Assembly (NCBI GenBank): GCA_963718915.1
Contig: CAVRAI010000001.1
Span: 120,001 to 152,000 of the forward strand
Source: an uncultured Chloroflexia bacterium
GTDB lineage: Bacteria > Chloroflexota > Ktedonobacteria > Ktedonobacterales > JADMIN01
DNA length: 32,000 nt
Reading direction: 5' to 3'
In this document: positions 1,396 through 27,102 of the stretch, piece after piece
How the letters are laid out: each line of letters starts with the position of its first letter
Numbering within the stretch: the first letter of the stretch is position 1
Notes under the pieces: generated by a model
The model's input: the letters and a program-made list of their open reading frames with translations, nothing else
What the model was told of the DNA's origin: nothing
The model's database searches: none
Translations under genes and position numbers: made by a program

Positions 1396-1447
1396 GACTT
1401 GATGTCGAGTCCATAACTGGCTCTAGGCCAGTGCGAGTCGCGCAGGC

Positions 1448-1747
1448 TCAGGTTCGGGCAGATGCGGAGCGAGCGATCGTGATGTACCAGTAGCCACCTG
1501 CGAGATTCAGCGTCCCAAGCACCAGGAAAAAGGCTGCCCATCCGTAGGCGCGGTACGAGAGACACATTACGCCCGCGGCAGCTGCGACACTGCCACCGGC
1601 AATACGCGTGCCCCCAGAGGCGCGGAGATGGCGATACTCCCATGGGCTGATCAGGCGATACATGCCAAATCGCGAGGGAGATAGCCACCAGCCACGCAGG
1701 CCTTTCGCAGCGGTGTTGTCGTTGGATGTGTCATTGGATGCGGTCAT
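1448..1747 (-). CDS. Small hypothetical membrane protein (two predicted TM helices)
   Basis: Track ORF 1448..1765 trimmed to the internal ATG at 1747, which has AGGAGG 8 nt upstream. Hydrophobic stretches GGSVAAAAGVMCL and AAFFLVLGTLNLAGGYWYI. Confidence 0.5.
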   Translation of the reverse strand: MTASNDTSNDNTAAKGLRGWWLSPSRFGMYRLISPWEYRHLRASGGTRIAGGSVAAAAGVMCLSYRAYGWAAFFLVLGTLNLAGGYWYITIARSASART

Positions 1748-1846
1748 CGAGATGCCTCCTGTCACCGGTGATGTGAGTCATCCGACCATCTCTCAAAGTG
1801 ACATCTATCCTGGGGACGCTCTCAACAGGCGAAGAATGCAACCCGT

Positions 1847-2167
1847 CTACACGCCCTGACGCAATCCTTCCTCGATCCAGGTGATGTGCTCGGTCGCATG
1901 CCCCGCTCTCCCTGCAAACACGTCGCCGACGGCCTGCTCACCAACGACCAGGGGCATTAAAGCAGCTAGTTGATCATCGGTGAACTGATGCAGGAGGTCC
2001 AATGTTTCCTGCCGCGCCGCCAGGAAATCTGCTGCTAGCATCTCCATACTGTCATCATGGTGCGCGTTCACGTAGGTTTGATTGACGCTGGCGACGGCCA
2101 GCTCCAGCCGCTCATCCTCCTCCGGGGTTAGCGCGTCCCAATCGCCCAGAATGCTCGGCAGCGGCAT
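1847..2167 (-). CDS. Hypothetical protein, possibly a DinB/ClbS-like helical bundle; start uncertain
   Basis: 106-aa ORF with acidic helical sequence ending GHATEHITWIEEGL. The frame stays open for 19 more codons upstream without a start codon. A good SD-ATG (GGAGAGAAATCATG) sits there in another frame, so the 5' end may be frameshifted. Confidence 0.4.
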   Translation of the reverse strand: MPLPSILGDWDALTPEEDERLELAVASVNQTYVNAHHDDSMEMLAADFLAARQETLDLLHQFTDDQLAALMPLVVGEQAVGDVFAGRAGHATEHITWIEEGLRQGV

Positions 2168-2670
2168 GCCCTCCGGGTATTGCAGGCGTAAGAGACCGTC
2201 TCGCGTCTCGCCGGCATGATTTCTCTCCTAGAAACCAGTGGGAAGCACTAGAAAGCACAAGGCGTGTCCAGACGACTCCGCCAGTCCTAGAGACGATAGG
2301 CAACAGGCACTATAACATACAAAAGGGGAGCAAACTTCTCCTATCTTGCTCTTTTCCGCTCGACTCTATCGCCAATCTCTCCCGCAAGGCAGGTCTATGA
2401 GCGTGTTTGACAGGGCATTGGGGAGTCTGAGACGGCAGAAGAGCAAGATAGAAGAAGCGTTTTGAGAGTCCGCATGCTATCCTGAGAGGGCGCCACCGCA
2501 TGACCCGGCAAGGACCACTTTACCACCAGGGCGTACGCTGAGGTGTGGGGGTTGCCGGTTAGGGGCGAGAAAACAGGCAGTTTCGAGAGTCGCTGCGGCC
2601 AGTGTCTGTACTCTACTCAAGCGAGCAGGGAAGACCGTCGGCCCTGATAGCAGTGATTAGGAGAGCCATC

Positions 2671-3426
2671 ATGAAATTACTGCTCACTTCCGCTGGCATC
2701 AAGAACACCAGCATCCACAACGCGCTGGTCGACCTGCTGGGCAAACCGATTGCTGAGTCAAGCGCCCTCGTCATTCCCACCGCGATCTACCCCTTCCCTG
2801 GCGGCGCTGCCGGGGCCTACCGGGCGATCCGCGGAATAGCCGCCAGCCCCTTGTGCGAATTGGGGTGGAAGTCGTTGGGCGTGCTGGAGCTGACCGCGCT
2901 GCCCAGCATCGATGACGAAGCCTGGATCCCCACGGTCCAGGAGACTGACGCCCTGCTGGTGTGGGGCGGCGATCCACTGTATCTCTCCTACTGGATGCGA
3001 CAATCGAGACTGGCCAACCTCTTGCCCTCGCTGCGGCGCGAGTCGGTCTACGTCGGGGTGAGCGCCGGGAGCATGGCGACGGCCGCCACCTTCGGCGAGA
3101 CCTATCTTGATCCGCCCAAGGGCGCTAGGGCCAGCGGTGAGGCGCTCACGTCGGAAGACATCGTGTTCGCCACACCCCAGGGAGACATCAGCAGGAACCT
3201 GGTCACGGCTCATGGCGTGGGGCTGGTTGACTTTGCGGTGATTCCGCACCTGGATCACGAGGATCACCCGGACGCTTCCCTGGCCAACGCGAAACAGTGG
3301 GCCGCACGGCTACAAGCACAGGTACCCGTGCCAACGTACGCGATTGACGATCAGACCGCCATACAAGTGGTCGACGGCGCCGTTGAAGTCATCTCCGAGG
3401 GGCACTGGCAGCTGTTTACCCCCTGA
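2671..3426 (+). CDS. Peptidase S51 family (dipeptidase E-like)
   Basis: Track ORF 2602..3426 trimmed to the ATG at 2671 (AGGAGAG 6 nt upstream). MKLLLTSAG start, LVWGGDPLYL, and the nucleophile-elbow-like VGVSAGSM are typical of S51/PepE-like proteins. Confidence 0.75.
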   Translation: MKLLLTSAGIKNTSIHNALVDLLGKPIAESSALVIPTAIYPFPGGAAGAYRAIRGIAASPLCELGWKSLGVLELTALPSIDDEAWIPTVQETDALLVWGGDPLYLSYWMRQSRLANLLPSLRRESVYVGVSAGSMATAATFGETYLDPPKGARASGEALTSEDIVFATPQGDISRNLVTAHGVGLVDFAVIPHLDHEDHPDASLANAKQWAARLQAQVPVPTYAIDDQTAIQVVDGAVEVISEGHWQLFTP

Positions 3427-3550
3427 TACGCTGTTTCGGCTATGAGCACATGAGCAGTTCGTGCCAAGCCTCGTGGCTCTCGGCTCGCGCGTTGGTCACC
3501 ACAGGAGGGGGGAGGCCAAACGGCGCCAATCGCCACATTGGTCACCCTAT

Positions 3551-3687
3551 CCCTCCCCTGCGAGGGGAGGGTGGCCGAAGGCCGGGAGAGGGCCGCCTGC
3601 CCATTATCGCAGTGAGATGCACGCAAGGCAAGAGCGCGCAAAGGGAAAGCTCGCGCGCCGATAGCCCCTCTCCCTATGGGGGAGGGG
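3551..3687. repeat. G/C-rich hairpin elements (REP-like) between convergent genes
   Basis: CCCTCCCCT-gcg-AGGGGAGGG is a perfect 9-bp stem at 3551-3571. CCCCTCTCCC-tat-GGGGGAGGGG is an imperfect stem at about 3665-3687. Both lie between the stop at 3426 (+) and the stop at 3705 (-). Confidence 0.6.
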
Positions 3688-3704
3688 TTGGGGAGGGGGC
3701 CGCG

Positions 3705-4511
3705 CTACGATCTGGCGGCGATGGTCATCTCCGGGCGGCTCTGGTGGAGGGTCCAGTCGGCGCTGATGGCCTCGGCGGTCTTTAGCAGCAGCGGCAGATA
3801 GGTCTCGGTGAGGGTCTCGATGCTGGTCTCGGCGGCGTGCGTGCTGACATTGAGCGCGGCAGCCACATGGCCGGGCCGGTCGTAGACGGGCGCCCCAATA
3901 GAGCGGATACCGCGCGCCAGCTGCTCGTCGGTGAGTGACCAGCCACGCGCGCGCACCTCGCGCAGGGCGCGGTCGCGCTCTTCGGCGTCGGGATTCCAGC
4001 GCGGCGTGATGCCCGAGCGGCTCGCCTGCGCGAGCGTCCGCTCCATCTCGTCGTGCGGCAGCGCCGCGAGCAGCGCCTTCCCCAGCGAGGTCTGCAGCGC
4101 CGGGAAGCGCGTGCCGATGGTGACCGCGAGCGTGATGATCTTGGGCACGGCCACCCGAGCGACATAGACGATATCCGACCCATCGAGCTGCGCCAGCGAG
4201 GACGATTCGCCCGTCCGGGCAACCAGCCGCTCCATATGTGGGCGGGCAAGCTCCCAGATACTGGTGGCGCCGATATAGGCCATGCCCAACTCGAGCACAC
4301 GGGGCGTCAGCGCGAACGTGCCGTCGTCGGCGCGGATATAGCCCAACTCTTCGAGGGTCAGCAGGATACGCCGCGCCGTTGGGCGGGCGAGTTCCGTAGC
4401 GGCGGCCACCTCGCTGAGGCTCATCGTCGGGCGGTTGCGCGCGAACACGCGGATGACATCCAGCCCCCGCGCCAGCGCCTCAATGAAATCCGGTCCTGTC
4501 TGGCTGCGCAT
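3705..4511 (-). CDS. IclR-family transcriptional regulator (PcaR/PobR-like)
   Basis: Track ORF 3705..4613 trimmed to the ATG at 4511 (GGGAGAA SD). N-terminal wHTH (MSLSEVAAATELARPTARRILLTLEELGYI) plus an IclR effector domain (SSSLAQLDGSDIVYVARV, GKALLA, GIRSIGAPV). Confidence 0.85.
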   Translation of the reverse strand: MRSQTGPDFIEALARGLDVIRVFARNRPTMSLSEVAAATELARPTARRILLTLEELGYIRADDGTFALTPRVLELGMAYIGATSIWELARPHMERLVARTGESSSLAQLDGSDIVYVARVAVPKIITLAVTIGTRFPALQTSLGKALLAALPHDEMERTLAQASRSGITPRWNPDAEERDRALREVRARGWSLTDEQLARGIRSIGAPVYDRPGHVAAALNVSTHAAETSIETLTETYLPLLLKTAEAISADWTLHQSRPEMTIAARS

Positions 4512-4782
4512 CGCTTCTCCCTGTGCATTTCCGTGCATCGCGGCATCGTGACAGATCATGATAGTGCGCCGCCATTCTATGCTACCGTGAGCATACCGGA
4601 ACTGCGCACGCATGTCTACCGTGCTATACCGATGCCGCCTGGGTGGTTGCTGTGTGGGCAGGCAAACCGTAGAGTTTACGCTACGATGAATTTCCGCGAT
4701 TCGCCGGGGCCTTCAGGCTCCGGCGCGTTCCCCCAAATATAACACCAATGGATTCGATATCATGCGTCTAGCTCCTCGCACC

Positions 4783-4843
4783 TTGACACTGCCTGAGCCG
4801 TCGTGTAGCATTCTAGCGGACGAGTGTCCGCTATGCGGACAAC
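4783..4843 (+). promoter_or_regulatory. Sigma70-like promoter (TTGACA-17-TAGCAT) followed by a three-half-site operator, facing the amidohydrolase operon
   Basis: TTGACA at 4783-4788, 17-nt spacer, TAGCAT at 4806-4811, then TCTAGCGGACGAGTGTCCGCTATGCGGACA. This contains the perfect palindrome TGTCCGC-tat-GCGGACA at 4825-4841. Paralogous to the module at 328-387. Confidence 0.6.
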
Positions 4844-4989
4844 ACGACTCTCCGTTTCGATGTGGATGGGCAATTTGGCGAACAGGACGCTGGCAGCGCA
4901 GCCAGGCCACCAGCCCCCGCAGTCGGCGCTGACGGTCAGGCAATGCCACCGCTTCGCATCCTGCGCGCCGGAACAACGAGGTGAGCAGT

Positions 4990-6459
4990 ATGAGCCAAAA
5001 TCGCGCCCCCGTCGCCGACGATTTCACCCCTGGCCGTCCTGTAGTGTTTCGCAATGCCACTGTCCTGACCGTTGATCCTTCCCTTGGCGTCTTGACCGGC
5101 GGCGATGTCCTCATCGTTGACAAGCGTATCGCCGCCGTGGGCAAGCAGCTGACCGTCCCCGACGGCGCCGTCGAGATCGACGCCTCTGGGGGCATTCTGA
5201 TGCCCGGCATGGTAGATACCCACCGCCATATGTGGCAGACGGCGCTGCGCGGCTTCGGCGCGGACTGGACGCTAACCAACTATTTCGTCTTCTACTACCT
5301 CAGTTGGGGCAAAATCTTCCGCCCCGAAGATATCTACGCGGGCAATCTGCTTTCCGCCATCGAGGCTATCGACGCGGGCGTTACGACCACCGTTGACTGG
5401 TCGCACGGCCTGCAAACCACGCAGCACGCGGACGCCGCCGTCGACGCGCTCGAATCGGTCCCAGGCCGCTTTGTCCTGGCCTATGGCAACATCCAGCAAG
5501 GGGCATGGGAGTGGACACGCACGCCTCAATTTGCCGATTTCATCAAGCGGCGCATCGATGGCAAGGGCGATATGCTGCGCATGCAGATCGCCTTCGACGT
5601 GACGGGTGATCCAGCGTTTCCAGAGCGGGGCGCGTTCGAGGCGGCGCGCGACTTCAACCTGCCAGTGACAACCCACGCGGGCGTCTGGGGCGCGACGAAT
5701 GACATCGGCATCCAGCAGATGTCTGACAACGGCTTCTTGACGCCATCCACCATCTGCGTCCACGCCTCGACACTCTCTGAAGACTCCTACCACCGGATCG
5801 CCGCCGCTGGCGCCCACACCTCCGTCTCGGCTGAGAGTGAGGATAGCTGCGGGCAGGGTTATCCGACGACATGGGAGCTGCGGAGATTTAACATCCCCGT
5901 CTCGCTCTCGATGGATACGAGCGTCTGGTGGAGCGCCGACCTCTTCTCGGCGATGCGCGCGACCCTCGACGCCGACCGCGCGCGCACTCATCTGGAGGCG
6001 CATAAGACGAACGAGACCATAACCCACAACTTTCTGCGCGCCGAGCATGTGGTCAACTGGGCGACGATGGGTGGCGCGGCGGCGCTGGGTATGAGCGACC
6101 TCATTGGCAGCATCACCCCAGGGAAGAAGGCCGACCTCGTCCTCATCAAGAACGACTTCTCGCCCGCGATGTTCCCGATCATCCACCCCTACGGACACGT
6201 CGTCTTCCAGGCGGGACGCGGCGACGTGCATACGGTGGTGGTGGATGGCAACGTCGTCAAGTTCGACCATCGCCTGCGCGGCGTCGATCTGGCGCGGGCA
6301 AAGCAGGCCGTGGCGGCAACCGTCGAGTATACCTACTCGCAGATTGGCGAAAAAGCCTGGAATGAGACGATGTATCCCGAAAAGCCCGAGGTGGTGGTCA
6401 TCGAGAACCCCTACACCTATTCCCGGCAGGTTGACGCTCCCACCGGAGAGCAGCATTGA
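4990..6459 (+). CDS. Amidohydrolase-superfamily metal-dependent hydrolase (TRZ/ATZ or cytosine-deaminase-like)
   Basis: Track ORF 4981..6459; the ATG at 4990 follows GAGGTG. Motifs PGMVDTHRHMWQT (HxH metal motif), later HAGV, and the C-terminal GSITPGKKADLVLI typical of this superfamily. Confidence 0.8.
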   Translation: MSQNRAPVADDFTPGRPVVFRNATVLTVDPSLGVLTGGDVLIVDKRIAAVGKQLTVPDGAVEIDASGGILMPGMVDTHRHMWQTALRGFGADWTLTNYFVFYYLSWGKIFRPEDIYAGNLLSAIEAIDAGVTTTVDWSHGLQTTQHADAAVDALESVPGRFVLAYGNIQQGAWEWTRTPQFADFIKRRIDGKGDMLRMQIAFDVTGDPAFPERGAFEAARDFNLPVTTHAGVWGATNDIGIQQMSDNGFLTPSTICVHASTLSEDSYHRIAAAGAHTSVSAESEDSCGQGYPTTWELRRFNIPVSLSMDTSVWWSADLFSAMRATLDADRARTHLEAHKTNETITHNFLRAEHVVNWATMGGAAALGMSDLIGSITPGKKADLVLIKNDFSPAMFPIIHPYGHVVFQAGRGDVHTVVVDGNVVKFDHRLRGVDLARAKQAVAATVEYTYSQIGEKAWNETMYPEKPEVVVIENPYTYSRQVDAPTGEQH

Positions 6460-13895: not shown

Positions 13896-14471
13896 TCAGG
13901 GAAGCAGGCCAAGGTACTGCGCGAGGAAGTAGCCGAACGCCAGCAGACCAGCGCCAATGCAGTAATACGCGAAAGGGTCCAGCGATTGCGTCTCGAAGTA
14001 GCGCATGAGGAAGCGCACCGAGAGATACGCCGCCACGCCCGCAATCACGCCGCCGATGAGCGCGAGTACGAGGATCTGCGTGCCCGCGCCGAAGAGCTTG
14101 GGAATCTCGAGCAGTCCCGCCGCCAGGATGATAGGAGTGGCCAGCAGAAACGAGAAGCGCGCCGCCGACTCATGGCTTAGCCCAATGCTCATGCCGGCGA
14201 CCATCGTGATGCCGGAGCGCGAGATACCTGGGAAAAGCGCCAGCGACTGCGCCAGGCCAATCAGCGCCGCCTGCACAAAGCTCATCTCCTGCAATGACTG
14301 ATCGAACTCGGCGTCATCCACCGCACGAACTGGGTCACCAGCGGACTGATAGGCGCCGCCTTGCAGCGCGGTCGCACCGAGGGTTACGCCACTTTTGTTG
14401 ATGGATTGCGCGTGGATGAAGCGTTGACGCCGGGTCAGGCGCTCGGCGGCGAGCAGCACCGCGCCATTCAT
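13896..14471 (-). CDS. uppP: Undecaprenyl-diphosphate phosphatase, C-terminal half (split gene)
   Basis: Contains the second UppP signature LFPGISRSGITMVAG and the C-terminal TM helices. Its ATG overlaps the stop of the upstream half (ATGA at 14471-14468). Confidence 0.8.
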   Translation of the reverse strand: MNGAVLLAAERLTRRQRFIHAQSINKSGVTLGATALQGGAYQSAGDPVRAVDDAEFDQSLQEMSFVQAALIGLAQSLALFPGISRSGITMVAGMSIGLSHESAARFSFLLATPIILAAGLLEIPKLFGAGTQILVLALIGGVIAGVAAYLSVRFLMRYFETQSLDPFAYYCIGAGLLAFGYFLAQYLGLLP

Positions 14472-14869
14472 GCGAGAAACGCCGCCGCCAGAATAGGCGC
14501 GCCAAAGAGCGCCTCGAGTTTGGTCTGGAAAAGCACGCCAATGAGACCGGCGGGCAACGTCCCGACAATCACGAGCGCCAACTGGCGTCCGTAGCCATGT
14601 GGATCGACATCCGGGGTAAATCTTCCCGCGATAAGCACCTTCACCCCGCCTTGTAGCAGATGCACCCAGTCGCGCCAGAAGAATGTCAGCAGCGCCAGCG
14701 CGGTGCCCAGGTGCAGTGTGACGACCAGCGGCAGAAAGGTGTCGCTGCGCAATAGATCGCCCCAGCCTAACAGCCCTGGGATGATGACAGTATGGCCGAG
14801 ACTGCTGACGGGAAAAAGCTCGGCGACGCCCTGCAGAAGGGCCAGAAGCACTACACGCACAGGATCCAT
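14468..14869 (-). CDS. uppP: Undecaprenyl-diphosphate phosphatase, N-terminal half (split gene)
   Basis: Contains the first UppP signature ELFPVSSLGH. Ends ...GAPILAAAFLA-stop exactly where full-length UppP continues with the helix found at the start of the next ORF (MNGAVLLAAERL). Confidence 0.8.
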   Translation of the reverse strand: MDPVRVVLLALLQGVAELFPVSSLGHTVIIPGLLGWGDLLRSDTFLPLVVTLHLGTALALLTFFWRDWVHLLQGGVKVLIAGRFTPDVDPHGYGRQLALVIVGTLPAGLIGVLFQTKLEALFGAPILAAAFLA

Positions 14870-16250: not shown

Positions 16251-18842
16251 CTAGCGTCGGGTTTGGTACGGCGGCCAAAAGCGCACTGCCCGCAAGAATC
16301 CACGCGCCGGGGGATTCTGACGGGGAAGCCCGTGCGAGGCATAGTGATCCTTGTACTCAGTAAAGAAGTAGTCGCGGAGCATGGTGCTTCTAACGATGAA
16401 GCTGTATCCACTTCCCTCCCGGCGCAACAGGTGATAGCCAGCCGCTTTTTTGAGGAATCTGGTGATCGAGCATGGAATGATCTTTGATTTCCTGAGTTGC
16501 CGTCGTATCCTGGCATGTTGTATCCATGCGGCGCCACCACGGCCAAGCGCGATACTTACACCAACGACAGTCCCGACGCCCATCCCTATCACCGCGCCAA
16601 TTGCCGCATCAATCAGACCAGCATGCAACCCTAAACCAGGCGACTTGCCTGTGTTTAGGGTTCCAATCCAGACTGCTCCAAGAAGCATCGAACCAACCAG
16701 TATTAAGCCAACGATCAGCCCAGCAAATATGGAAAGGCTGAGAATACCAAGGGCCGCTTGCCCCGCGTGAATGAACCAAGCATCAGGGCCGGAATCGCGC
16801 CCGAGCCAGATGAGTATTCCAGTAACCGTTCCAAAGATGATGGCGGTTGCTACTCCGCATATCAATCCGAGAACTATTCCGCCCAGCGTTCCGCCCAACG
16901 CCACGGCGACGAGAGATACAAACGCCACGCCAACGCCCGCGAAAGACAGCGACTGTTGCACGGTGAGACCAGTACGCTTCGTCGGTTCAACTAATTCGTC
17001 GTCGCGCTCGGAGTCAACGACTTGAAAACCGAACCCAACGCCTAACCCGCCAATCAATCCAATGAGCGGATAAAGGAGCCAGGATAACCATCCAGGAGAC
17101 ACTCCAGGAGACACTCCAGGAGACACTCCAAGCGCTGGCTCGAAGACATTCCCTCCGCCGCTTGCGTAGAGCATAGCTATTACTATGCCCACGGCGATTC
17201 CAAGTAGCGGTCCAAACGTGAACCGAATAGCGAGACTGATGTTCCTCAGGTCACGACGGTAGTTCTTCACTGTATCGTCTTGCGAGGGAAGCAACTCTCG
17301 TGACAAATTTTTCAGATAGAAGATCCTCAAGCCTTGTTTATGCAGCGCGTGCCCTACCCAGGCCAACCCTTTCTCCATCTGGCGGATTTCGTCATCTGAT
17401 GGCGTATACCCTGCCTTGCGTTTTTGGTCGGGGAACTTCATCATCGTCTCGACATACCCGCGGAATATGGCGGTCTGCGGCGCCACGCCAGATACGACCG
17501 AGGAGGAAATCTGGCTCGCGTCAAGGTCATTCAGATTCATCAGCGCCAGATTCAGCATGAGTGGTGTGCGCAGTGTGTCACCCATCTCGTTATGAGACAA
17601 GGCGACTTGTCGCAGGTCGCGTATACGCTGCGCCGCGTTGAGATTTCCTTCTCGCCGCTTGGTCGCCACAGCGCCATCCAGCGCCGTCGTCACCTGATCT
17701 GGCGTGAGCCGCAGCAACCGCACAGCATATGGGAGATTCAACGTTTTTGGAGCTAGTGCGCGATACTCATCGTCACGACAGCAAACGACCAGTGGTCTGT
17801 CTGCGTCTCGCTTGCTTCCCGCCAAATACCCGCTGATTTTATCAACGCATATCTTCCGATCTTCAATTTCCATGATATCGAGTGAGTCCAGCAGCGGCAG
17901 AATCAGCCCTTTGCTCACCCAGCGATGCGCGGTCTTCTTGTGGACATTGTAGACGAGCGCAATACCATCGACGAGCCATTTCTCGAACCGGACTTTGTTA
18001 CCTTTTGGCCAGGTTGCAAGATCGAGAATCACCGGAATGTATAGCTCAGCAGCGCGTTCCTTCGCGCGTTCCTCACGTAGCTTCCGTTTGGCCTCATCGG
18101 CCAGGGCCTTGCCCAGCACATAGAGCTGGGTGCTCTTCCCTCCACCTGGCTCCGCAAGGATCAGCAGGTGCTGTTGACCCGCATCAAAGGCCTCCCGCAC
18201 GATCCGCGCCGTCACATTGTACGCGTCGCTCGTAGCACGGATAGTATCGATGTCAATATGCGCTCCCAGGGCCGCCGAGTGTTGAACAGCATCTGGCGCC
18301 ATTTCCACCCCAAGCGCAAAACGACCAGCTTTTATCAACGGGTTGTCTAAATGATCGCTATACCGTTTGGCGAGGCTTACCAGAAACCTCCACTCGTTCT
18401 TCTCTTCTTGCGCGAATACACGCCTTACTGTTGGAATGCCAATGATGATTGCGACCAACAACACGAGCAAAAAATTGGATGACCAGGGTTGGTGGTTGTG
18501 AATCGTCTGCGACAACTGCTCGATGCTCGACACCAGGTCATTCAGAAGAATGCCGAGCAATCCGGAGACCAATCCCGCGACTATCTCTAAAGGGAGTTGT
18601 AGACGGCTGAGCCATTGTCTCCACATATTTTCATTGAGCGCCCGCTGGATGGCAATGAGGCTACCAAATAGAATGATGAATAGCAGCGCGGTAATCCCGC
18701 AGGAAACCGCGATGTGCTCCCGGACAAATGGGATCTGCTGTATCCAATCACTGGCGAGGGTGTTCTCTAAAAGAGAGGCTAATGCAGCTGGAAGCGCCGC
18801 CAGAAACGTCAGGGTCAGGGTTTGTCTCAGCGTTCGATTCAC
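16251..18842 (-). CDS. Membrane-embedded NACHT-type STAND P-loop NTPase (about 4 N-terminal TM helices, NACHT, about 8-10 TM helices, WH-like tail)
   Basis: GTG start with AAGGAGG 5 nt upstream. Walker A LILAEPGGGKST (18129-18146), LYIPVILDL, Walker B-like LILPLLDSLDIME (compare LLDGLDE), and TPLMLNL. The C-terminal FLKKAAGYHLLRREGSGYSFIVRSTMLRDYF resembles the NACHT winged-helix motif. Long Gly/Ala/Ile/Leu-rich hydrophobic segments span residues about 540-790. Confidence 0.75.
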   Translation of the reverse strand: MNRTLRQTLTLTFLAALPAALASLLENTLASDWIQQIPFVREHIAVSCGITALLFIILFGSLIAIQRALNENMWRQWLSRLQLPLEIVAGLVSGLLGILLNDLVSSIEQLSQTIHNHQPWSSNFLLVLLVAIIIGIPTVRRVFAQEEKNEWRFLVSLAKRYSDHLDNPLIKAGRFALGVEMAPDAVQHSAALGAHIDIDTIRATSDAYNVTARIVREAFDAGQQHLLILAEPGGGKSTQLYVLGKALADEAKRKLREERAKERAAELYIPVILDLATWPKGNKVRFEKWLVDGIALVYNVHKKTAHRWVSKGLILPLLDSLDIMEIEDRKICVDKISGYLAGSKRDADRPLVVCCRDDEYRALAPKTLNLPYAVRLLRLTPDQVTTALDGAVATKRREGNLNAAQRIRDLRQVALSHNEMGDTLRTPLMLNLALMNLNDLDASQISSSVVSGVAPQTAIFRGYVETMMKFPDQKRKAGYTPSDDEIRQMEKGLAWVGHALHKQGLRIFYLKNLSRELLPSQDDTVKNYRRDLRNISLAIRFTFGPLLGIAVGIVIAMLYASGGGNVFEPALGVSPGVSPGVSPGWLSWLLYPLIGLIGGLGVGFGFQVVDSERDDELVEPTKRTGLTVQQSLSFAGVGVAFVSLVAVALGGTLGGIVLGLICGVATAIIFGTVTGILIWLGRDSGPDAWFIHAGQAALGILSLSIFAGLIVGLILVGSMLLGAVWIGTLNTGKSPGLGLHAGLIDAAIGAVIGMGVGTVVGVSIALGRGGAAWIQHARIRRQLRKSKIIPCSITRFLKKAAGYHLLRREGSGYSFIVRSTMLRDYFFTEYKDHYASHGLPRQNPPARGFLRAVRFWPPYQTRR
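17091..17130. repeat. In-frame 12-bp tandem repeat TCCAGGAGACAC x3.3 inside the NACHT gene
   Basis: Counted directly. On the coding strand it encodes GVSP-GVSP-GVSP-G in a loop of the C-terminal TM region. Confidence 0.9.
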
Positions 18843-19021: not shown

Positions 19022-20542
19022 CTATTTGTTCGGCCACCTCAGCTTGAGATCGCGGTAGTACCGTATAAAGGGCGTCATCACCAGGATGGTAGCGACCGTG
19101 TACGGCGCGAAGCGATTGGCGATGGCTTCCATTGGCATATCCAGCACATCGGAGAGTACCAGAGCCACGAAGAAGGCAAAGCTGACCCCCGCGACCAACT
19201 CTGTTCCCCAGAGAAATACGCGCACGTAGATGCGTCCGGGACGCGGAACCCCTATCGGGCCGCCTCGGCCCATGGCATGCAGATCACGCCAGAGAAGCGC
19301 TCCATAGAGGAGTCCGGGGATGAGCAGCATCCACGCAAAGCTCCAGTCGTCGGGGCTGACACTGGCCTCGGTGTATCCCAGACGGTTCATGATCGCCAGG
19401 AAGACATGGCCCAGCAGCAGGGACGCGCCAGCAAAGAATACCGGCCCCACCACGAATGACAGCATCATGATGCCATAGCCCAACCCAGAGCTATCGTCCG
19501 ACTCACTGACACGCCGCCTTTCGCGCCAGAAATAGACCACCAGCATGATCAGGCCAGCGACGAACGGCCCCAGGAAGGGATAGCTGGCCAGGCCAAACTC
19601 ACCAGGGGTAGAGAGCAGCGATTGCGGAATGACCGCCTCCGTATGCCCGGTGACGATGTCGAGGATGAACCGTATACCCAACACGCTGTAGAGAACAATG
19701 ATCACGCCTGTGACGGTGGCTCCGATCATCGCATCGAGGTTGCGGAGCCAGATGCTGTTGCCCCAGGTTTCTTTATCCAGAGTGGCCCAGCGGATATAGG
19801 CATAGAAAACGAGCAGAATCACAAGCATCGTCACGAGCGCGCCGGGAATCGGCGCTGTATCGGTGCATGTCTGCGCGAACCGTGAGATGAACGCCAGGAG
19901 TTGCGAGGGGATATCGAGTTCGCGCGAACAGAGCGGCAGCGGCGCAATCGCCGTCTGCAGCAAGGATTGCACCGTCTGCGCGATGGCCCAGATGGCCATG
20001 ACAAGCACGATCCACTGGCCCAGGAGCGCGAAGAACACGGCGATCTTCTGGCCCGCTTCCTCAAACTTCCCACCCTTGGCCCATTCCAGCACCACCAGCA
20101 CCAGCGCGATCCCCCAGGCGATTACTGCCGCGAGCGGCGAGGCGATAGGGAGGCTGCTGGGCTGCGAGAGCGCATCCAGATTACGGACGATAAGAACCAC
20201 CGACAGCAGGATCCTCAGACCGATGAAGCAGACCAGCACCGCCAGGAAGATCGCGCGAATGACTCCACCACGTCCCTCGCTCGTTGTCTTGCGGTCGTGG
20301 CGTATCAGGAGCCAGCCAATGACGCCAATCACCAGGACGACAACATCCGCCGGAATATTGGTAAAGATGGGCAGATCGCTCACCAGATCAAGCAACCCAC
20401 CCAGCGTGAGAACGTCGGTGAACCCAACGCGCAGCAGCAGGTTGTGCGCAACATTTTGCAGCACATTACCCAGGTAGACGAGACAGCATGTGGTGATGAA
20501 ATAGTAGATGAAGCGCAGGACGCGCTGTACTGCCGAGGTCAT
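19022..20542 (-). CDS. Hypothetical polytopic membrane protein (at least 10 predicted TM helices)
   Basis: Track ORF 19022..20575 (GTG) trimmed to the ATG at 20542 (GAGGAAAAGGAAA upstream). Hydrophobic helices throughout. No family recognised. Confidence 0.7.
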   Translation of the reverse strand: MTSAVQRVLRFIYYFITTCCLVYLGNVLQNVAHNLLLRVGFTDVLTLGGLLDLVSDLPIFTNIPADVVVLVIGVIGWLLIRHDRKTTSEGRGGVIRAIFLAVLVCFIGLRILLSVVLIVRNLDALSQPSSLPIASPLAAVIAWGIALVLVVLEWAKGGKFEEAGQKIAVFFALLGQWIVLVMAIWAIAQTVQSLLQTAIAPLPLCSRELDIPSQLLAFISRFAQTCTDTAPIPGALVTMLVILLVFYAYIRWATLDKETWGNSIWLRNLDAMIGATVTGVIIVLYSVLGIRFILDIVTGHTEAVIPQSLLSTPGEFGLASYPFLGPFVAGLIMLVVYFWRERRRVSESDDSSGLGYGIMMLSFVVGPVFFAGASLLLGHVFLAIMNRLGYTEASVSPDDWSFAWMLLIPGLLYGALLWRDLHAMGRGGPIGVPRPGRIYVRVFLWGTELVAGVSFAFFVALVLSDVLDMPMEAIANRFAPYTVATILVMTPFIRYYRDLKLRWPNK

Positions 20543-20634
20543 GCCAATTTCCTTTTCCTCACATCGACGCGCCACACCGTCACGTCACCATACCGCCGTA
20601 CCGCTGTGTCGCCCTCAACACCATTCGCTCTGGT

Positions 20635-21843
20635 TCATGGGGCGATATGACTCATATCGAGGGCAAACAGCACACACACCTGGCAGTAGAATTTGCCTGG
20701 AGATGTCTTGATAAACTTGTTAGAACTCAAATTAACGCCGCGGCCATTGATGATGCTGTGCATGATGACGTTGTAGCGTTTCTCGACCTGAGGTGGCCCA
20801 CCCTGATTGCCAGCTTGCGACCGCGTGTTGGGTTGCTGTTTCACCTGTTCATCATGCGTCAGCCGTTGCTGAACGAGAGTAGCGACATCGTCGAATTTGG
20901 GGTTGTTTGATTTGAAGGGCACAATCAGATTGACCGAGATCGGTTGCTGATGCGGATCCACCCCTTGCCGCGTAAATGGCTCGACAGTAGTCATCGCTGA
21001 GGGGTCGTCCTGAAGGATCGAGCGTGAAAGCGTGACGAGGGTGTCCGCCGCATCCGCTGCCGAGATGAACCGGGTGAAATGGCGAAAAATAGGGTAGAAG
21101 AGGCGGCCGATGAATTTATCTGGCTTCTTCATCGTGAGGCCCTGCGTTTTGACGGCCATCCCGATGAACGGCTTCGTGGAGGGTTGGCGGATCGTCTCCA
21201 CTTGCAGTTCGAGACCAGGGTTGTACATCCTGTGGTTCGGCGCCGTACAGATCCCCGCCAGACTCTTTGCCAGCAACCTGAACTGCGTCTCCTGCCCACC
21301 AACGGACTGATGGAGAGGAGAATCGGTTCGCACGATGAACGCTGCCTCGAAGATGGGCTGGTTACTGTTCGCCGCATCGGGCCTGGTATATTGTTCCAGC
21401 GCCTCGTACGCCGCGCGATTTCCGCCTCGTTGTGTGCTATCAGCAACGCAGATAACAGTAATGAACAACGGCTGGACGGAGCTAACGCGCAGATGACGAA
21501 ACACCTCGGCGTAATCTGGCTTTTGCAGCATACTGGCGTCAATGATGAGCAACAGCGATTCTGACGCAAAGTCGAGAACATGCCGACTCAGATCAACCAG
21601 ATCGTCAAGTTCCGCATTGGGAAACTGCACGATTGGCTTGGGCTTGACGCTGAGATCTTCGACATGCAGCTTGCGATTGCGCGTCAGCCGATGTATTTTC
21701 TGTCGGACTCTGGCGCCAGCCTCGCGATCATAGACGCCAATGGCGACCAGCCCATGCCCCGGCGGTCCATCGACAAGTTCGCGAACAACCTTCTCGGTCA
21801 GCTGGCTACTCAACTTGCCCACACCAAGGATGATTGAAGGCAC
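20635..21843 (-). CDS. Hypothetical soluble protein, paralog of the C-terminal domain of the 706-aa neighbour; degenerate Rossmann/tubulin-like alpha/beta domain
   Basis: GTG start with GGGAGGA 6 nt upstream. Collinear blocks are shared with residues 333-706 of ORF 22062..24182 (see findings). Confidence 0.7.
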   Translation of the reverse strand: MPSIILGVGKLSSQLTEKVVRELVDGPPGHGLVAIGVYDREAGARVRQKIHRLTRNRKLHVEDLSVKPKPIVQFPNAELDDLVDLSRHVLDFASESLLLIIDASMLQKPDYAEVFRHLRVSSVQPLFITVICVADSTQRGGNRAAYEALEQYTRPDAANSNQPIFEAAFIVRTDSPLHQSVGGQETQFRLLAKSLAGICTAPNHRMYNPGLELQVETIRQPSTKPFIGMAVKTQGLTMKKPDKFIGRLFYPIFRHFTRFISAADAADTLVTLSRSILQDDPSAMTTVEPFTRQGVDPHQQPISVNLIVPFKSNNPKFDDVATLVQQRLTHDEQVKQQPNTRSQAGNQGGPPQVEKRYNVIMHSIINGRGVNLSSNKFIKTSPGKFYCQVCVLFALDMSHIAP

Positions 21844-22061
21844 TGGTTATCCTCCCTCAGAGGCTACTGATATACCGCCAGATGGCGGCGCGCCATCTAC
21901 TACCTGGCGCGCTATCGCATCATCACTCTGCTCATCCAGTCTTCGCGATACGCATGTTCGCGCCAAATAGCCGAGCACAGGTATCAACAGCCTCCCAAGG
22001 CAACATAGGCGCCGCCTCGATACGCGCTGGGAGGCCGCGGTCTCATGACAGGGCTTGCGGC

Positions 22062-24182
22062 TTATCCCAATTTCCCTGGCCGATGCCTCCGGAACGCGGT
22101 AAAGTGGAAGTAGTAATCGCCCTTCCAGATTCTCAGCGGACTGCTGGCTCCGCTGATGTCTATCCCCTTATCGTTGGTGTTTCCCAGCTGTTCGATGGTC
22201 ACCTGACCCTGGTTCACACCATAGGCGCGCAGCCAATCGTTGACGTACTGCTTGAATTCATCTAGTTGGCGTAGCCGCTCTGGAACGACCAGATTGATGA
22301 AAGGCACTGCCGCCAGGTTTTCCTTGACCGTCGAGAGCGTCTGATTCCCCGCTGGGAAGACCTTCGCGGCGACCAGCTTCAGTATTCTTGAGGCGGTAGC
22401 AGAGTTGATGTCACCCCTACTACCATAGACAGGGCCATCCTGGAAGGCGGTCCTCGCAGTGTTCACGCCAATAGACCCGGCCTCAAGGGCCGAGAACGAA
22501 TACTGCGCATTATGCATTTGTTGCGCGACGGCGGCGAAGTTGGCGGAAGCGTTATAATCGCCAGCGACGAGCAGCGCCGCAATGCTGCGGTGCAGCACCT
22601 CAGAGTACTTGCCCTTCATCTCGCCGGCCAGCGGGCAGTTATCCTGGATAACCACCGTGGTCGCCAGGATAGAGCCTGACTTCTTCGCCCAATTGTTCAA
22701 TTCCTCGGCTGTCTGCTTTAACTCGGCTGTAATCGGGTCTGGCACAAGCCAGAGGATGACCAGTCGAATGTTCTGATCGTTGACAGTCGGAGCACCGCCA
22801 GCCTGCGCCTGCGCGCCGACCAGTTGACCAGACATCACCGCATCAAGTTTTTGTAGCGCGAGTCGAGACGCCTCCAGATCATCTCCATAGGCAACCCAGA
22901 TGAGCCGTTTGACGACAGTTGTCCTGTTGCTGAAATAGCCCTGGTCGAGTGTCTTCACCAGCGCGTCTGCGGCATCCTCTGCGGTCTGGCTGTCAGTGTC
23001 TGGTGTGACGACCGCAGCCGCGACGTGCATATTGCTCAACCGATTTTTCATCCTGCTCGCCAGCGTCGCGTTGGGCATGTAGTAGCCAGCCAACCAGGCG
23101 TACTCACCCTGCAACGCGCGCACCTGCCTGCAGATACCCTCGGCGAACGTGCTGCCCTGCGAACCAAAGCCGATGATCGTCAGATCGCGATTCTCGACGG
23201 GTTCAGGCGGTTTCGCCTTTCCCTCTCGATGGGTGATGCCATAGAGCGCGGCGTTGATGAGACCGAACAAGCCAATGATGCCACCGATGATCGCACAGAT
23301 TGCGCTCGCGAGCAAACAAATCAGTGCGGCGGCGCCGCCGATCACGAGCGTGCCGAGACCTTCGAGCGCCTGATACCATCCTGGCCACGCCAGAAAGATA
23401 GCAATCGCCACGAGAGCAGAGGTGCCAACAAAAACCGTGACGACAACCTCTAAATCCTTGGCGTTCAGGTATTGCTGGAGGATACCGCCGATTGTCAGGA
23501 ACACGACGACGACGACGTCCAGCGCAAACATGAAGATGGCGAGACCAAGCTTGATCTTCTTCTCAAGCTCCCCAGCATCAGGCTCAAGCTTGACCGCGAC
23601 TGGAAGGCCCGTAGTCTGTTCCTGGATCAACATGCCAGAAAGCGCCGCTATCGAGACGAACAGCACTCCTGTAATGACCTGGAGGTACTGGAAGAGTGTC
23701 TTCATGAATCCGGGCGCCTCACCACCACCAAAGAGGATGGGCGCGCGCGTGGAGACCAATACATAGTCAGAGCCGACACAGACAACCACCAGCAGGAGAT
23801 AGATGATACGCCTGACCCATGCACTGGTGATTTCGTTGGAGTTAGGATTTCTGGGCTCCCCGAGCTCATCGGTGATTCTCTTCTTGATTTGCGCAATCTC
23901 ATCGTCCGTTAATCGTACGCCATTTTTTTTGGCCTCCTGCTTCCTCACCTCAGCATAGGTCAACCGGTTGATGTGCTCCTCTTGTCGCTTCTTTTCACCC
24001 TCGCGGCTCCAAATCCTCTTGATGTTGCCCCAGATGGCTTTGGCAGCCGCCAGGAGAAATCTTCGCCCACGGTCAAAGCCGTTAGAGACCCTGTAGGCGA
24101 GGTTGGGAACCAGCGTCAGAGCAAGCAGCACCGCCACCACAACCAGTATCATGTCGACCCACGGCGTGAAGAACTGCGCCAT
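22062..24182 (-). CDS. Hypothetical membrane protein: about 6 N-terminal TM helices with a charged coiled segment, plus a cytosolic Rossmann/tubulin-like domain with GxGxxG
   Basis: ATG with GGGAGGGG SD. TM helices lie within residues 10-315. The soluble domain from residue 333 (nt 23186 downward) begins LTIIGFGSQGSTFAEG. Confidence 0.75.
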   Translation of the reverse strand: MAQFFTPWVDMILVVVAVLLALTLVPNLAYRVSNGFDRGRRFLLAAAKAIWGNIKRIWSREGEKKRQEEHINRLTYAEVRKQEAKKNGVRLTDDEIAQIKKRITDELGEPRNPNSNEITSAWVRRIIYLLLVVVCVGSDYVLVSTRAPILFGGGEAPGFMKTLFQYLQVITGVLFVSIAALSGMLIQEQTTGLPVAVKLEPDAGELEKKIKLGLAIFMFALDVVVVVFLTIGGILQQYLNAKDLEVVVTVFVGTSALVAIAIFLAWPGWYQALEGLGTLVIGGAAALICLLASAICAIIGGIIGLFGLINAALYGITHREGKAKPPEPVENRDLTIIGFGSQGSTFAEGICRQVRALQGEYAWLAGYYMPNATLASRMKNRLSNMHVAAAVVTPDTDSQTAEDAADALVKTLDQGYFSNRTTVVKRLIWVAYGDDLEASRLALQKLDAVMSGQLVGAQAQAGGAPTVNDQNIRLVILWLVPDPITAELKQTAEELNNWAKKSGSILATTVVIQDNCPLAGEMKGKYSEVLHRSIAALLVAGDYNASANFAAVAQQMHNAQYSFSALEAGSIGVNTARTAFQDGPVYGSRGDINSATASRILKLVAAKVFPAGNQTLSTVKENLAAVPFINLVVPERLRQLDEFKQYVNDWLRAYGVNQGQVTIEQLGNTNDKGIDISGASSPLRIWKGDYYFHFTAFRRHRPGKLG

Positions 24183-24855: not shown

Positions 24856-24897
24856 TATTGGCTTTCCAGTGGAGCATGAGTGTCAGGGGTTCTTTGG

Positions 24898-25806
24898 ATG
24901 AAGAAGCTGTTGGGTTTCGCATTGCTGATGGTGGCGCTATTCTCGTTGCTCGCGTGTGGCACAATTGGAAGCGGCATTCCAACCCCCGCGGCGCAGCCAA
25001 TTCCGACTCTTGCGCTGCGCACTCAGCCTGCCGCCACGCGAGCGCCATTACTCATCCAATTTTGTAATGATGATACAGGGAGCTTCCCACGCAAAGACTT
25101 CCAGGGCGCCAATCAACTCATGGCATCGAGCCTGGAGCAGGCGGTGAGCGCCAATCAGCGAGGAGTAACACTCTACGCCACCGCCATTACCCATAACACC
25201 TTCGATCCCTCGAATACGCTCAATCCAGCGTTCATCGTTCCCGAAATAAAAGCCTATGAGACACCACCAACTCCTGTTCCAACACATGCCCCGCAAGATC
25301 CCGTGACGGATCCCGCCACAGCTACAGCTATATCGCAACAAACGAGCAGTGGCGTCGCCACGTACAATGGAACAGTCGCCACGCTCGACCAAACAATCGA
25401 CAAGGTCAAAAATGACGTGAAGACTGACGTCGCGCGGCTGACATCATGGAACCCCCGTGTTGATAACATCGCCACCAGCATCCTTGGCTGCTTCCAGTTG
25501 GCAGCTTCACGATTCCAGGGGCAGTCGGGCATTAAGCTGATCTATATTGCGTCCGATCTGGAAAACAACACCGATGTTGATTACACGCAAAGCTTCGTGC
25601 AATCGCATGGTCTGGCTGGGGTGATCGTCCACGTCATTTATTTTGTCAGCCCGAGTGCGTCACGCGACCAGCAAAAACGCGCGAAATGGTGTCCATTCCT
25701 GAAGTCCGCGGGGGCCAGTGTGGTTCTGTTCAGTGATCCCACTGCTTCACCGACGTTGTCAGATGTCTTCAACAAAGATCTGGCGACTCCCCCGCAGTCC
25801 TGTTAA
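24898..25806 (+). CDS. Lipoprotein, possible vWA-like fold (paralog 1)
   Basis: Track ORF 24880..25806 trimmed to MKKLLGFALLMVALFSLLAC (lipobox LLAC). DDTGS resembles the MIDAS DxSxS motif. Later ATAITHNTF and IYIASDLENN resemble the vWA T and D positions. Four conserved Cys residues are shared with paralog 2. Confidence 0.7.
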   Translation: MKKLLGFALLMVALFSLLACGTIGSGIPTPAAQPIPTLALRTQPAATRAPLLIQFCNDDTGSFPRKDFQGANQLMASSLEQAVSANQRGVTLYATAITHNTFDPSNTLNPAFIVPEIKAYETPPTPVPTHAPQDPVTDPATATAISQQTSSGVATYNGTVATLDQTIDKVKNDVKTDVARLTSWNPRVDNIATSILGCFQLAASRFQGQSGIKLIYIASDLENNTDVDYTQSFVQSHGLAGVIVHVIYFVSPSASRDQQKRAKWCPFLKSAGASVVLFSDPTASPTLSDVFNKDLATPPQSC

Positions 25807-26166: not shown

Positions 26167-27102
26167 ATGCTGTCAGCATTCTTGAGTAGCAGGAGTCGCC
26201 AACAGAGCAGAAGTCTCGTCCTCATCTTTGGGCTTATTTGTCTGTTGATATCGCTTATCGCCTGTACAACGATTTCCACGCCCCAGGACACACCGTTACC
26301 AACCATTGCCGCGCATCCACAACCACCGCAAATGCGCCCTCAAGTGCTCATTCAATACTGCGATGACGATACTGGCAGCTACCCACACATGTATTTTGGG
26401 GAAGCCAACCAGCTTATCGCCTCCAGCTTGCAGCAGGCTGTTACGGCCAACCAGCAAGGCGTGACCCTCTATGCGACTGCTATCACCCACGATACCTTCA
26501 ATCCGGTTAATACGCTCAATCCGGCATTTCTCATTCCGTCGATACCGGCCTATCCGACACCGCCAACACCAGCGCCAACCCATGCGTCAGATAACCCCGT
26601 CTTTGACCCTGCTACGGCGACTGCGGTACAGGTTCAGAACGTCAGCAACATAACCACATTCAATAACAGAGTCGCCGCAATAAACCAAACACTCACCAGT
26701 GCTCAGTCGCAGTTGGATAGTGACGTGAAGCGCCTGACATCATGGAAACGCTCCGTAGACCATATCGCGACCAGTGTGCTGGGCTGTTTCCAGTTGGCGG
26801 CTACACGGTTCCAGGGGCAATCAGGCGCTAAAATGCTCTACATCGCCTCTGATCTGGAAAATAACACTGATGTAGACTATACCCAGAACTTTGTGAAAGA
26901 ACAGGAGCTCAAAGATGTGGTGGTTCATGTCATCTACTTCTTTAGCAGCAATGCGGCGCGCGATCAGGTGAAACGATCCAGATGGTGTCCTTATCTCAAA
27001 TCAGCGGGCGCCAGTATGGTCATATTTAGCGATCCAGTCGAGCCGTTGCAGAACAAGGATATGTTCGACGTTGATTTGACCTCGCCTACGCCGAGTTGCT
27101 GA
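26167..27102 (+). CDS. Lipoprotein, possible vWA-like fold (paralog 2)
   Basis: GAGGGGG SD and lipobox LIAC. Collinear with paralog 1 over its whole length (QYCDDDTGSYP, GVTLYATAITH, LGCFQLAATRFQGQSG, YIASDLENNTDVDYTQ, RWCPYLKSAGAS, terminal PSC). Confidence 0.75.
   Translation: MLSAFLSSRSRQQSRSLVLIFGLICLLISLIACTTISTPQDTPLPTIAAHPQPPQMRPQVLIQYCDDDTGSYPHMYFGEANQLIASSLQQAVTANQQGVTLYATAITHDTFNPVNTLNPAFLIPSIPAYPTPPTPAPTHASDNPVFDPATATAVQVQNVSNITTFNNRVAAINQTLTSAQSQLDSDVKRLTSWKRSVDHIATSVLGCFQLAATRFQGQSGAKMLYIASDLENNTDVDYTQNFVKEQELKDVVVHVIYFFSSNAARDQVKRSRWCPYLKSAGASMVIFSDPVEPLQNKDMFDVDLTSPTPSC

Follow-up and report, generated by a model that had tools for sequence, protein, structure and literature searches.

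A candidate divergent branch of the tubulin/FtsZ superfamily, with membrane-tethered and free paralogs, in a low-G+C gene cluster of an uncultured Chloroflexia bacterium

What are the two neighbouring genes that encode a 706-amino-acid and a 402-amino-acid protein in an uncultured Chloroflexia bacterium, and what might their products do together? Both genes lie on the minus strand of a 32,000-nucleotide stretch of contig CAVRAI010000001.1 (assembly GCA_963718915.1, positions 120,001 to 152,000), which we call the window at its full length and to which all positions refer unless a locus is named. A prediction made from the letters of this DNA (the original prediction) had held that the C-terminal part of the first protein and the whole of the second are copies of one domain of about 370 residues, that its strand order recalls the GTPase domain of FtsZ and tubulin although the tubulin signature is missing, and that an active, membrane-anchored copy is paired with a degenerate, free one. 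Its open reading frame (ORF) positions, strand and domain boundary were exact, residue 333 of the 706-amino-acid protein lying at base 23186, and the parts of the two genes are as follows.

22062..24182, minus strand: 706-amino-acid protein, the tethered copy, with a membrane module and a C-terminal domain of predicted tubulin/FtsZ fold
22062..23186, minus strand: residues 333–706 of this protein, the domain of predicted tubulin/FtsZ fold (AlphaFold2 model, Foldseek, paralogy to the 402-amino-acid protein)
23187..24182, minus strand: N-terminal membrane module of this protein (hydropathy scan; homology to the modules in proteins P0015 and P0016)
20635..21843, minus strand: 402-amino-acid free paralog, predicted tubulin/FtsZ fold (AlphaFold2 model, Foldseek)

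The answer that we think reasonably probable is that the two proteins are an anciently duplicated and extremely divergent tubulin/FtsZ-superfamily pair, one member welded into the membrane with its domain in the cytoplasm and the other soluble, which would assemble with one another and serve in biological conflict.

The first step, that residues 333–706 of the 706-amino-acid protein and the whole 402-amino-acid protein are true paralogs, is established far beyond chance. The two window copies share only about 13% identity and their pairwise BLASTP comparison was not significant (best high-scoring segment pair, E 1.5), so the paralogy is not demonstrable from these two sequences alone. Profile methods gave a different result: hhalign matched an alignment of the tethered domain (six sequences) to one of the free copy (eight sequences) with a probability of 99.1% (E 6.9e-19) over 345 aligned columns, and placed all seven of the collinear blocks noted in the original prediction in the same register. 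Hidden Markov models (HMMs) built from a single lineage also crossed over at a database size of 1.8e9, the tethered profile finding the free protein P0008 (1.2e-10) and the free profile the tethered protein P0022 (5.8e-28). That the block similarity is a coincidence between unrelated proteins, as the BLASTP value by itself would suggest, is refuted by the alignment of the two lineages and by these reciprocal matches, and we give it practically no credence.

The second step concerns the fold. The AlphaFold2 model of the free copy (85 sequences) had a predicted local distance difference test score (pLDDT) of 95.0 and a predicted template-modelling score (pTM) of 0.93, and that of the tethered domain (14 sequences) was of medium quality (66.6 and 0.76 respectively). 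Elements of the free-copy model follow one another as S1-H1-S2-H2-(S3)-H3-S4-H4-S5-H5-S6-H6-H7-H8-S7-H9-S8-H10-S9-S10, with a long helix H7 at residues 184–199, which we take to be the order of FtsZ and tubulin structures, namely a nucleotide-binding domain, the core helix H7 and a C-terminal H8-S7-H9-S8-H10-S9-S10. When each model was compared with the PDB by Foldseek, the 50 best matches listed all belonged to the tubulin superfamily. The tethered domain was closest to CetZ2 (E 8.9e-8), with Asgard tubulin, CetZ1, FtsZ and tubulins among the matches listed; the free copy was closest to gamma-tubulin (5.5e-9), with FtsZ at 1.7e-8, and FtsZ from at least six species, BtubB and tubulins were listed for it. 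These alignments ran over approximately 405–470 columns, with a TM-score of up to 0.63 when normalised to the FtsZ core. A library of viral structures gave phage tubulin and FtsZ as the best matches (E ~1e-5).

The resemblance to FtsZ and tubulin proposed from the strand order is therefore found in the predicted structures of both domains, with no unrelated fold among the 50 best matches listed, and the elements of the model follow one another as the earlier mapping of S1/T1, S4, S5 and S6/T6 had it. Its extent has to be redrawn: the region of about 370 residues does not correspond to the GTPase domain alone, as had been supposed, but to the whole two-domain core (S1–S6, H7 and H8–S10), and the complete FtsZ/tubulin architecture, H7 and C-terminal domain included, is present in the pLDDT-95 model. 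We rate the family, on the strength of these models, as a new and very divergent member of the tubulin/FtsZ superfamily.

The original prediction had also allowed for a generic Rossmann domain. Were the proteins ordinary NAD(P)/FAD-type (nicotinamide or flavin dinucleotide) Rossmann enzymes with a superficial likeness to tubulin, one would understand the GFGSQG at the first strand–helix turn of the window's tethered copy, the Asp that follows strand 2 in 14 of the 25 free copies (here and below, motif counts and the tree come from 47 full-length domains, 22 tethered and 25 free) and the weak profile matches to lactate dehydrogenase and ribose-5-phosphate isomerase (E 0.3). However, GxGxxG is not conserved, neither model has a dinucleotide-binding enzyme among its 50 listed Foldseek matches, and the Foldseek alignments take in the C-terminal H8–S10 domain, which Rossmann enzymes lack. 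The Rossmann-like matches in the viral library, moreover, are only partial (130–280 columns) and lie far below the tubulins. This alternative is not favoured, since the listed Foldseek matches are all of the tubulin superfamily, and we hold it to be very improbable.

Several results nonetheless weigh against a place in the tubulin/FtsZ superfamily. The TM-scores are only moderate (0.42–0.63), with root-mean-square deviations of 6–9 Å. Pfam gave no match at E ≤ 1 for the two proteins of the pair and none at E ≤ 0.01 for 85 family members (PF00091, PF12327, PF13809 and PF14881 included), Pfam, NCBIfam and PADLOC gave nothing above noise for any of the six proteins of the gene cluster described below, and a family profile searched against PDB sequences found no tubulin. 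An hhalign comparison of the 47-member family with four FtsZ sequences was not significant (probability 0.3%), though collinear (S1/T1, S4, H7, T7, S7 and H10 in order) and served for mapping only. The tubulin assignment rests on predicted structures because no sequence method links the family to tubulin, and what these structures support is a relation to FtsZ and tubulin at the level of the fold only.

Two other candidates that emerged from profile searches were set aside. Matches to Mrr_cat (E 0.15) and LmuA (E 5e-4) at residues 640–682 of the 706-amino-acid protein are no evidence of a nuclease, since they fall on its H10–S9 region, which is without the (D/E)xK residues, and a match to SepX/GlpR (E 0.067) is explained by the composition of a transmembrane (TM) segment and a charged linker.

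If the fold is that of tubulin, do the proteins work as tubulins do? The positions that correspond to two of the nucleotide-binding loops are listed here for both window copies.

23151..23171, minus strand: T1-loop equivalent of the tethered copy, GFGSQGS, residues 338–344 (family alignment)
21805..21825, minus strand: T1-loop equivalent of the free copy, GVGKLSS, residues 7–13 (G-x-G-x-x-[SGA]-[ST], common to both lineages)
22881..22904, minus strand: S4/T4 position of the tethered copy, LIWVAYGD, residues 427–434 (no glycine-rich loop)
21532..21555, minus strand: S4/T4 position of the free copy, LLLIIDAS, residues 97–104 (Asp102 in place of the glycine loop)

Across the family, T1 reads G-x-G-x-x-[SGA]-[ST], its two glycines being present in 45 and 46 of the 47 members and the full glycine run being absent. 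The third glycine of GxGxxG occurs in 10 of 22 tethered and 5 of 25 free copies; the difference between GFGSQG and GVGKLS that had been pointed out is thus real for the two window copies, but is not a property of the family. The tubulin signature GGGTG(S/T)G of T4, already reported as missing from the window pair, is absent from every one of the 47 members and is replaced by L-L-x-x-x-D followed by a helix, with the Asp present in 35 of them (24 of 25 free, 11 of 22 tethered). In place of the N-D-x-L of T6 stands S-P-L, and helix H7 carries a conserved L-L-A-[KR]-S-L-A. T7 keeps an Asn and a Phe (N-P-x-F), while the two acidic positions of FtsZ NxDxxD are variable in both lineages, the T7 register being that of a manual mapping and of the non-significant hhalign alignment. 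Polar residues of the pocket are conserved, i.e. the G-x-G-x-x-S-S loop, Asp39, Ser65, Asp102, Ser175-Pro-Leu and Gln187.

The T7 loop of FtsZ is NxDxxD and the catalytic acid of alpha-tubulin is Glu254, and it is from the established roles of the T4 and T7 loops that the activity of the new proteins can be judged. Since the T4 signature is lost and the acidic residues of T7 are not conserved, canonical guanosine triphosphate (GTP) binding and hydrolysis appear unlikely as far as the residues tell. A canonical GTP-driven cytomotive filament, i.e. an FtsZ/TubZ-like GTPase that treadmills and is anchored directly to the membrane, would agree with the full two-domain tubulin/FtsZ fold, with the conserved G-x-G of T1 and Asn at the T7 position, and with the few members that keep an acidic residue at the T7-equivalent position (e.g. 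P0007, NPNFADQ). Against it stand the phosphate-holding glycine loop of T4, absent in 47 of 47 and usually replaced by Asp, the lack of conservation of the T6 Asn-Asp and of the catalytic acids of T7, and the failure of the Pfam models Tubulin, FtsZ_C and Tubulin_2 to match any of the 85 members, and we consider such a filament quite improbable.

The notion of an active tethered copy paired with a degenerate free copy has to be given up as well. The tethered lineage has not conserved GxGxxG, T4 is missing from either lineage, and it is the free copy that is the more constrained. Identity in orthologous pairs was 77, 48 and 50% for the free copy versus 66, 45 and 46% for the tethered one, and the free copy is better conserved at the pocket and at T7 (Asp102 in 24 of 25 versus 11 of 22; Ser175 in 24 of 25 versus 10 of 22; the T7 residue Asn208 in 22 of 25 versus 10 of 22). 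Its T7 face (Asn208-Pro209-x-Phe) and helix H7 are conserved as strongly as its pocket. If either copy has been relaxed, it is the tethered one.

The family is rare, and its function is one that we infer. Among 5.8 billion clusters, nine close homologs were found for the 706-amino-acid protein and eight for the 402-amino-acid protein, and a merged profile, run exhaustively with HMMER against 1.84 billion representatives, retrieved 99 clusters, 39 of them at E ≤ 1e-30. Approximately half of the members are free proteins of 370–460 amino acids, and in the other half the domain is C-terminal in proteins of 700–1050 amino acids. A neighbour-joining tree of the 47 domains sets the free copies apart from the tethered ones as distinct clades, with a few exceptions, so the duplication must be old and neither lineage has since been lost. 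Two contig scans of the GTDB species representatives with family patterns were empty, so the family seems absent from them at the patterns used. A tblastn search of plasmids gave no match; of the metagenome scans, the first was empty and the second, with the lipoproteins described below as queries, gave five short contigs. Samples identified for the family loci are soil or farmland metagenomes.

In the free copies P0003, P0004 and P0006 a variable insertion rich in Pro, Gln and Ala separates H10 from S9, and DPYQT[IV]N[LF], repeated in some of these H10–S9 insertions, could be a short linear binding motif. The free copy of the window has only a short insertion there (about 20755..20850), where the pLDDT of the model is 69–79.

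How is the tethered copy held at the membrane, and on which side? A hydropathy scan of the module gave a first TM segment (TM1) at about residues 8–30, a charged linker of some 85 residues (about 31–115) and a core of about six TM segments (about 118–317); by the same method, no TM segment was predicted in the free 402-amino-acid protein. The module recurs in two proteins that carry a TIR domain. In P0016 the same module (45% identity, E 2e-66) is followed by TIR at 309–422 instead of the tubulin-fold domain, and in P0015 a TIR domain at 15–142 precedes it. By hydropathy the linker of the 706-amino-acid protein is cytoplasmic. TIR domains act in the cytoplasm, and since one is fused at either end of the module, the two ends of the six-TM core should by analogy also lie on that side, and the tubulin-fold domain with them.

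The module behaves as a mobile unit, TIR being swapped for the tubulin-fold domain in P0015 and P0016, and the 2.5-kb contig that encodes P0015 (L011) has a tyrosine-recombinase fragment upstream.

The surroundings of the pair give the next indication of what it may do. Four minus-strand genes, encoding the 706-, 402-, 517- and 863-amino-acid proteins, lie head to tail, and two lipoprotein genes on the plus strand diverge upstream of them.

19022..20575, minus strand: 517-amino-acid polytopic membrane protein, third gene of the operon (about ten hydrophobic segments by hydropathy scan)
16251..18842, minus strand: 863-amino-acid P-loop protein, NACHT-like (motifs from an ortholog alignment, TM segments from hydropathy)
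24880..25806, plus strand: 308-amino-acid lipoprotein with lipobox LLAC, divergent from the operon
26167..27102, plus strand: 311-amino-acid lipoprotein with lipobox LIAC, a paralog of the 308-amino-acid one, divergent from the operon

The G+C (guanine plus cytosine) content of approximately 16–27 kb is 52–60%, versus 62–66% on both flanks, and the genes to either side are unremarkable (those for an alpha/beta hydrolase and uppP at one end, those for a thiamine pyrophosphate enzyme and an alcohol dehydrogenase at the other). This lower G+C content and the ordinary flanks suggest that the six-gene cluster is a horizontally acquired island. No transfer RNA gene occurs anywhere in the window, and no integrase was seen among the island-adjacent genes examined. 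The gap between the tethered and free genes (21844..22061) is unusually long at 218 bp, orthologous loci having 52–331 bp; scans for promoters and terminators gave results at chance level, with no terminator- or promoter-like site in this gap.

The arrangement is not peculiar to the window. The order tethered copy, free copy, membrane protein of about 488–517 amino acids and protein of 860–960 amino acids recurs in L001, L004, L005, L006, L008, L009 and L012; taken together with the lipoprotein gene or genes, it is found at 45–70% identity in these loci and in L002, and the tethered and free genes are always adjacent across loci. This conserved six-gene arrangement is, like the fold assignment, solid in our judgement. 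Polytopic orthologs of 488–509 amino acids follow the free copy in L001, L004, L005, L008, L009 and L012; the 517-amino-acid protein itself matched no family in Pfam, PADLOC or NCBIfam. One or two genes of about 300 amino acids are divergent upstream in L001, L002, L005, L006 and L008, and two tandem lipoprotein copies are also found in L002, L006 and L014.

The lipoproteins are the best-conserved component of the cluster, the 308-amino-acid one being 58% identical to its neighbour and 54–84% identical to orthologs in L001, L002, L005, L006 and L008. Even at the distant locus L010, where the tethered protein is 25% identical, a lipoprotein ortholog (E 6e-101; 1302..2174) lies directly upstream on the same strand. 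By eye, the lipoproteins show D-D-T-G-S ... T ... S-D-x-x-N-x-T-D, reminiscent of a vWA metal-ion-dependent adhesion site (MIDAS), and one ortholog had a faint match to DUF1194 (E 0.038). Many Cys, Asp and Thr positions are invariant among them.

The 863-amino-acid protein, with orthologs in L001 and L004, has N-terminal TM segments, a Walker A motif (EPGGGKST), a Walker-B-like LPLLDSLD, the motifs VVCCR and TLRTPLLLSLA and, after a TM-rich insert, a conserved C-terminal LLRREGSGYxFIVRSxMLRDYF. One of its three orthologs matches Pfam NACHT (E 0.0012) and AAA_16 (0.013), and a PDB profile search found no NLR match for the window protein. With modest confidence, and from these motifs, we read it as a NACHT-like P-loop nucleoside triphosphatase (NTPase). 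The insert, about 250 residues rich in glycine and TM segments, separates the NACHT-like core from the C-terminal segment, and the window protein carries a short GVSPGVSPGVSPG repeat that is absent from its orthologs.

In L002, a 792-amino-acid TIR_2/AAA_22 protein, a 232-amino-acid protein and a Peptidase_C14 (caspase-family) protein are encoded at 1708..6182 beside the cluster. Genes of the TIR_2/AAA_22 and caspase families are typical of conflict systems in multicellular bacteria. A GAP1-like or FNIII component was not seen in the cluster.

What, then, might the pair do? That the copies form a heterodimer, or that a filament starts from the membrane, as originally suggested, is plausible in the light of the gene data, because the two lineages are separate clades and their genes are always adjacent. 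The two copies would associate head to tail, pocket face to T7 face, as in alpha/beta-tubulin or BtubA/B, and the product could be a heterodimer anchored in the membrane, or else a short polymer for which the tethered copy acts as seed and the better-conserved free subunit as building block. Assembly would not be driven by intrinsic GTP hydrolysis; the switch might lie in the membrane-embedded NACHT-like P-loop NTPase encoded next to the pair, in a ligand bound by the remodelled pocket, or in both, and input from the envelope side may come through the polytopic membrane protein and the pair of extracytoplasmic lipoproteins. In its most specific form, that of a membrane-integral tubulin-like subunit that seeds its soluble paralog independently of hydrolysis, with a NACHT-like NTPase that switches on envelope signals relayed by lipoproteins, we offer this scheme tentatively, as a possibility that falls well short of being probable.

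The same fold might instead have been re-used as a ligand sensor or adaptor that does not polymerise and that regulates the membrane module or the NACHT-like NTPase. Each copy would then use its remodelled pocket to bind a partner protein or a small molecule, such as a signal derived from a nucleotide, and no head-to-tail contacts would be made. Conserved polar residues do line the former nucleotide pocket, and in P0016 a TIR signalling domain sits where the tubulin-fold domain sits on the same membrane module, as such a role would lead one to expect. However, the T7 face and H7 of the free copy are as conserved as its pocket, which is expected for a longitudinal contact, and the strict pairing of two separate lineages suggests a heteromer; a sensor or adaptor seems to us rather improbable.

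For the assembling pair, a role in biological conflict (anti-phage or anti-competitor) or in regulated membrane remodelling or damage would be envisaged rather than one in cell division. Conflict is suggested because the membrane module is fused to TIR elsewhere, because L002 adjoins TIR-STAND and caspase genes, and because the cluster forms a low-G+C island. To the points already held against the reading of an assembling conflict pair must be added that the heteromer and the polymer are drawn from genes and single-chain models, that the case for a defence role is made by association, on short metagenomic contigs few in number, that the cluster is without a recognisable effector enzyme, that the NACHT assignment is weak (one ortholog, E 0.0012), and that a vWA identity of the lipoproteins was not confirmed, with no match in Pfam or PDB profile searches.

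How does the cluster compare with known systems? Canonical FtsZ, CetZ, tubulin, TubZ and PhuZ (PF00091/PF12327) have the two-domain fold and element order of our models, are the best and only structural matches listed, and share with the new family the two glycines of the T1 G-x-G and the T7 Asn; they differ in possessing the T4 GGGTG(S/T)G, the T6 NDxL and the T7 acid, which the new family is without, and there is no detectable sequence or profile similarity between the two. FtsZ itself relies for its tethering on partners, among them FtsA, ZipA and SepF. The tethered copy of the new family, in contrast, is covalently fused to a polytopic membrane module. Alpha/beta-tubulin and BtubA/BtubB are likewise adjacent, anciently duplicated tubulin-fold paralogs with separate lineages, the pattern expected for an obligate heteromer; both of their subunits bind GTP and are soluble, whereas neither of the present copies has the phosphate-binding loop, and the tethered one is integral to the membrane. 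The TIR-TM proteins P0015 and P0016, with which we group the TIR/TM effectors of Thoeris, Pycsar and CBASS-type systems as the closest TIR-TM proteins, share the membrane module and have TIR in the cytoplasmic position of the tubulin-fold domain, which they lack.

Tubulin-domain proteins whose operons also encode vWA proteins, divergent P-loop GTPases and TM proteins have been described outside this setting, and a role in membrane remodelling was proposed for them (FtsZl1; Makarova and Koonin, 2010; PMC2875224). FtsZl1 keeps GGGTG(S/T)G, has no recognisable T6–H7 or FtsZ C-domain, and ends in a long coiled coil and a helical C-terminal domain (PMC2875224). Such tubulins occur in DO-GTPase/GAP1-N2 conflict systems, and some of these encode a pair of tubulins together with a pair of vWA proteins, of which one is extracellular (Kaur et al., 2020; PMC7159879). 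Our cluster resembles the FtsZl1 and DO-GTPase/GAP1-N2 systems in having tubulin-domain genes outside the division cluster, sometimes as two paralogs, with envelope proteins and a P-loop NTPase. The features of FtsZl1 are reversed in the new family, which has a complete C-domain and neither the signature nor a coiled coil, and the partner NTPase of the DO-GTPase/GAP1-N2 systems is a TRAFAC GTPase whereas here it would be NACHT/STAND-like. We classify the cluster as a new version of such tubulin, NTPase and envelope-protein systems. A 2023 survey of FtsZ and tubulin (PMC9871819) makes no mention of transmembrane or signature-less families, and nothing closer was found in the literature on tubulin-like proteins in TIR or defence contexts.

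The GTP-binding signature is, for practical purposes, what defines the tubulin/FtsZ superfamily, and in the surveys consulted new members were recognised by it or by profiles derived from it (PMC2875224; PMC9871819). The present family is invisible to signature-based censuses; with the fold kept in a lineage from which the signature has gone, the superfamily would accordingly be broader than they suggest. A membrane-anchored tubulin-fold protein with a soluble paralog would also be a simple system in which to ask whether longitudinal assembly works without GTP. The NACHT-like NTPase, the lipoproteins and the TIR-swappable module may link cytoskeletal folds to bacterial conflict systems, an idea proposed on genomic grounds (PMC7159879). 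If the hydrolysis-independent scheme is true, the family would be the first branch of the tubulin superfamily without the GTP-binding signature yet with its assembly surfaces kept, and the cluster a new class of 'cytoskeletal' machine in prokaryotes, attached to the membrane and serving immunity or remodelling.

One observation concerns the flank of the island. The uppP/bacA gene (13896..14869, minus strand) is split into ORFs of 133 and 191 amino acids that overlap in ATGA, the second of which matches only positions 113–256 of the Pfam BacA model; it is either a frameshifted pseudogene or the product of a sequencing error.

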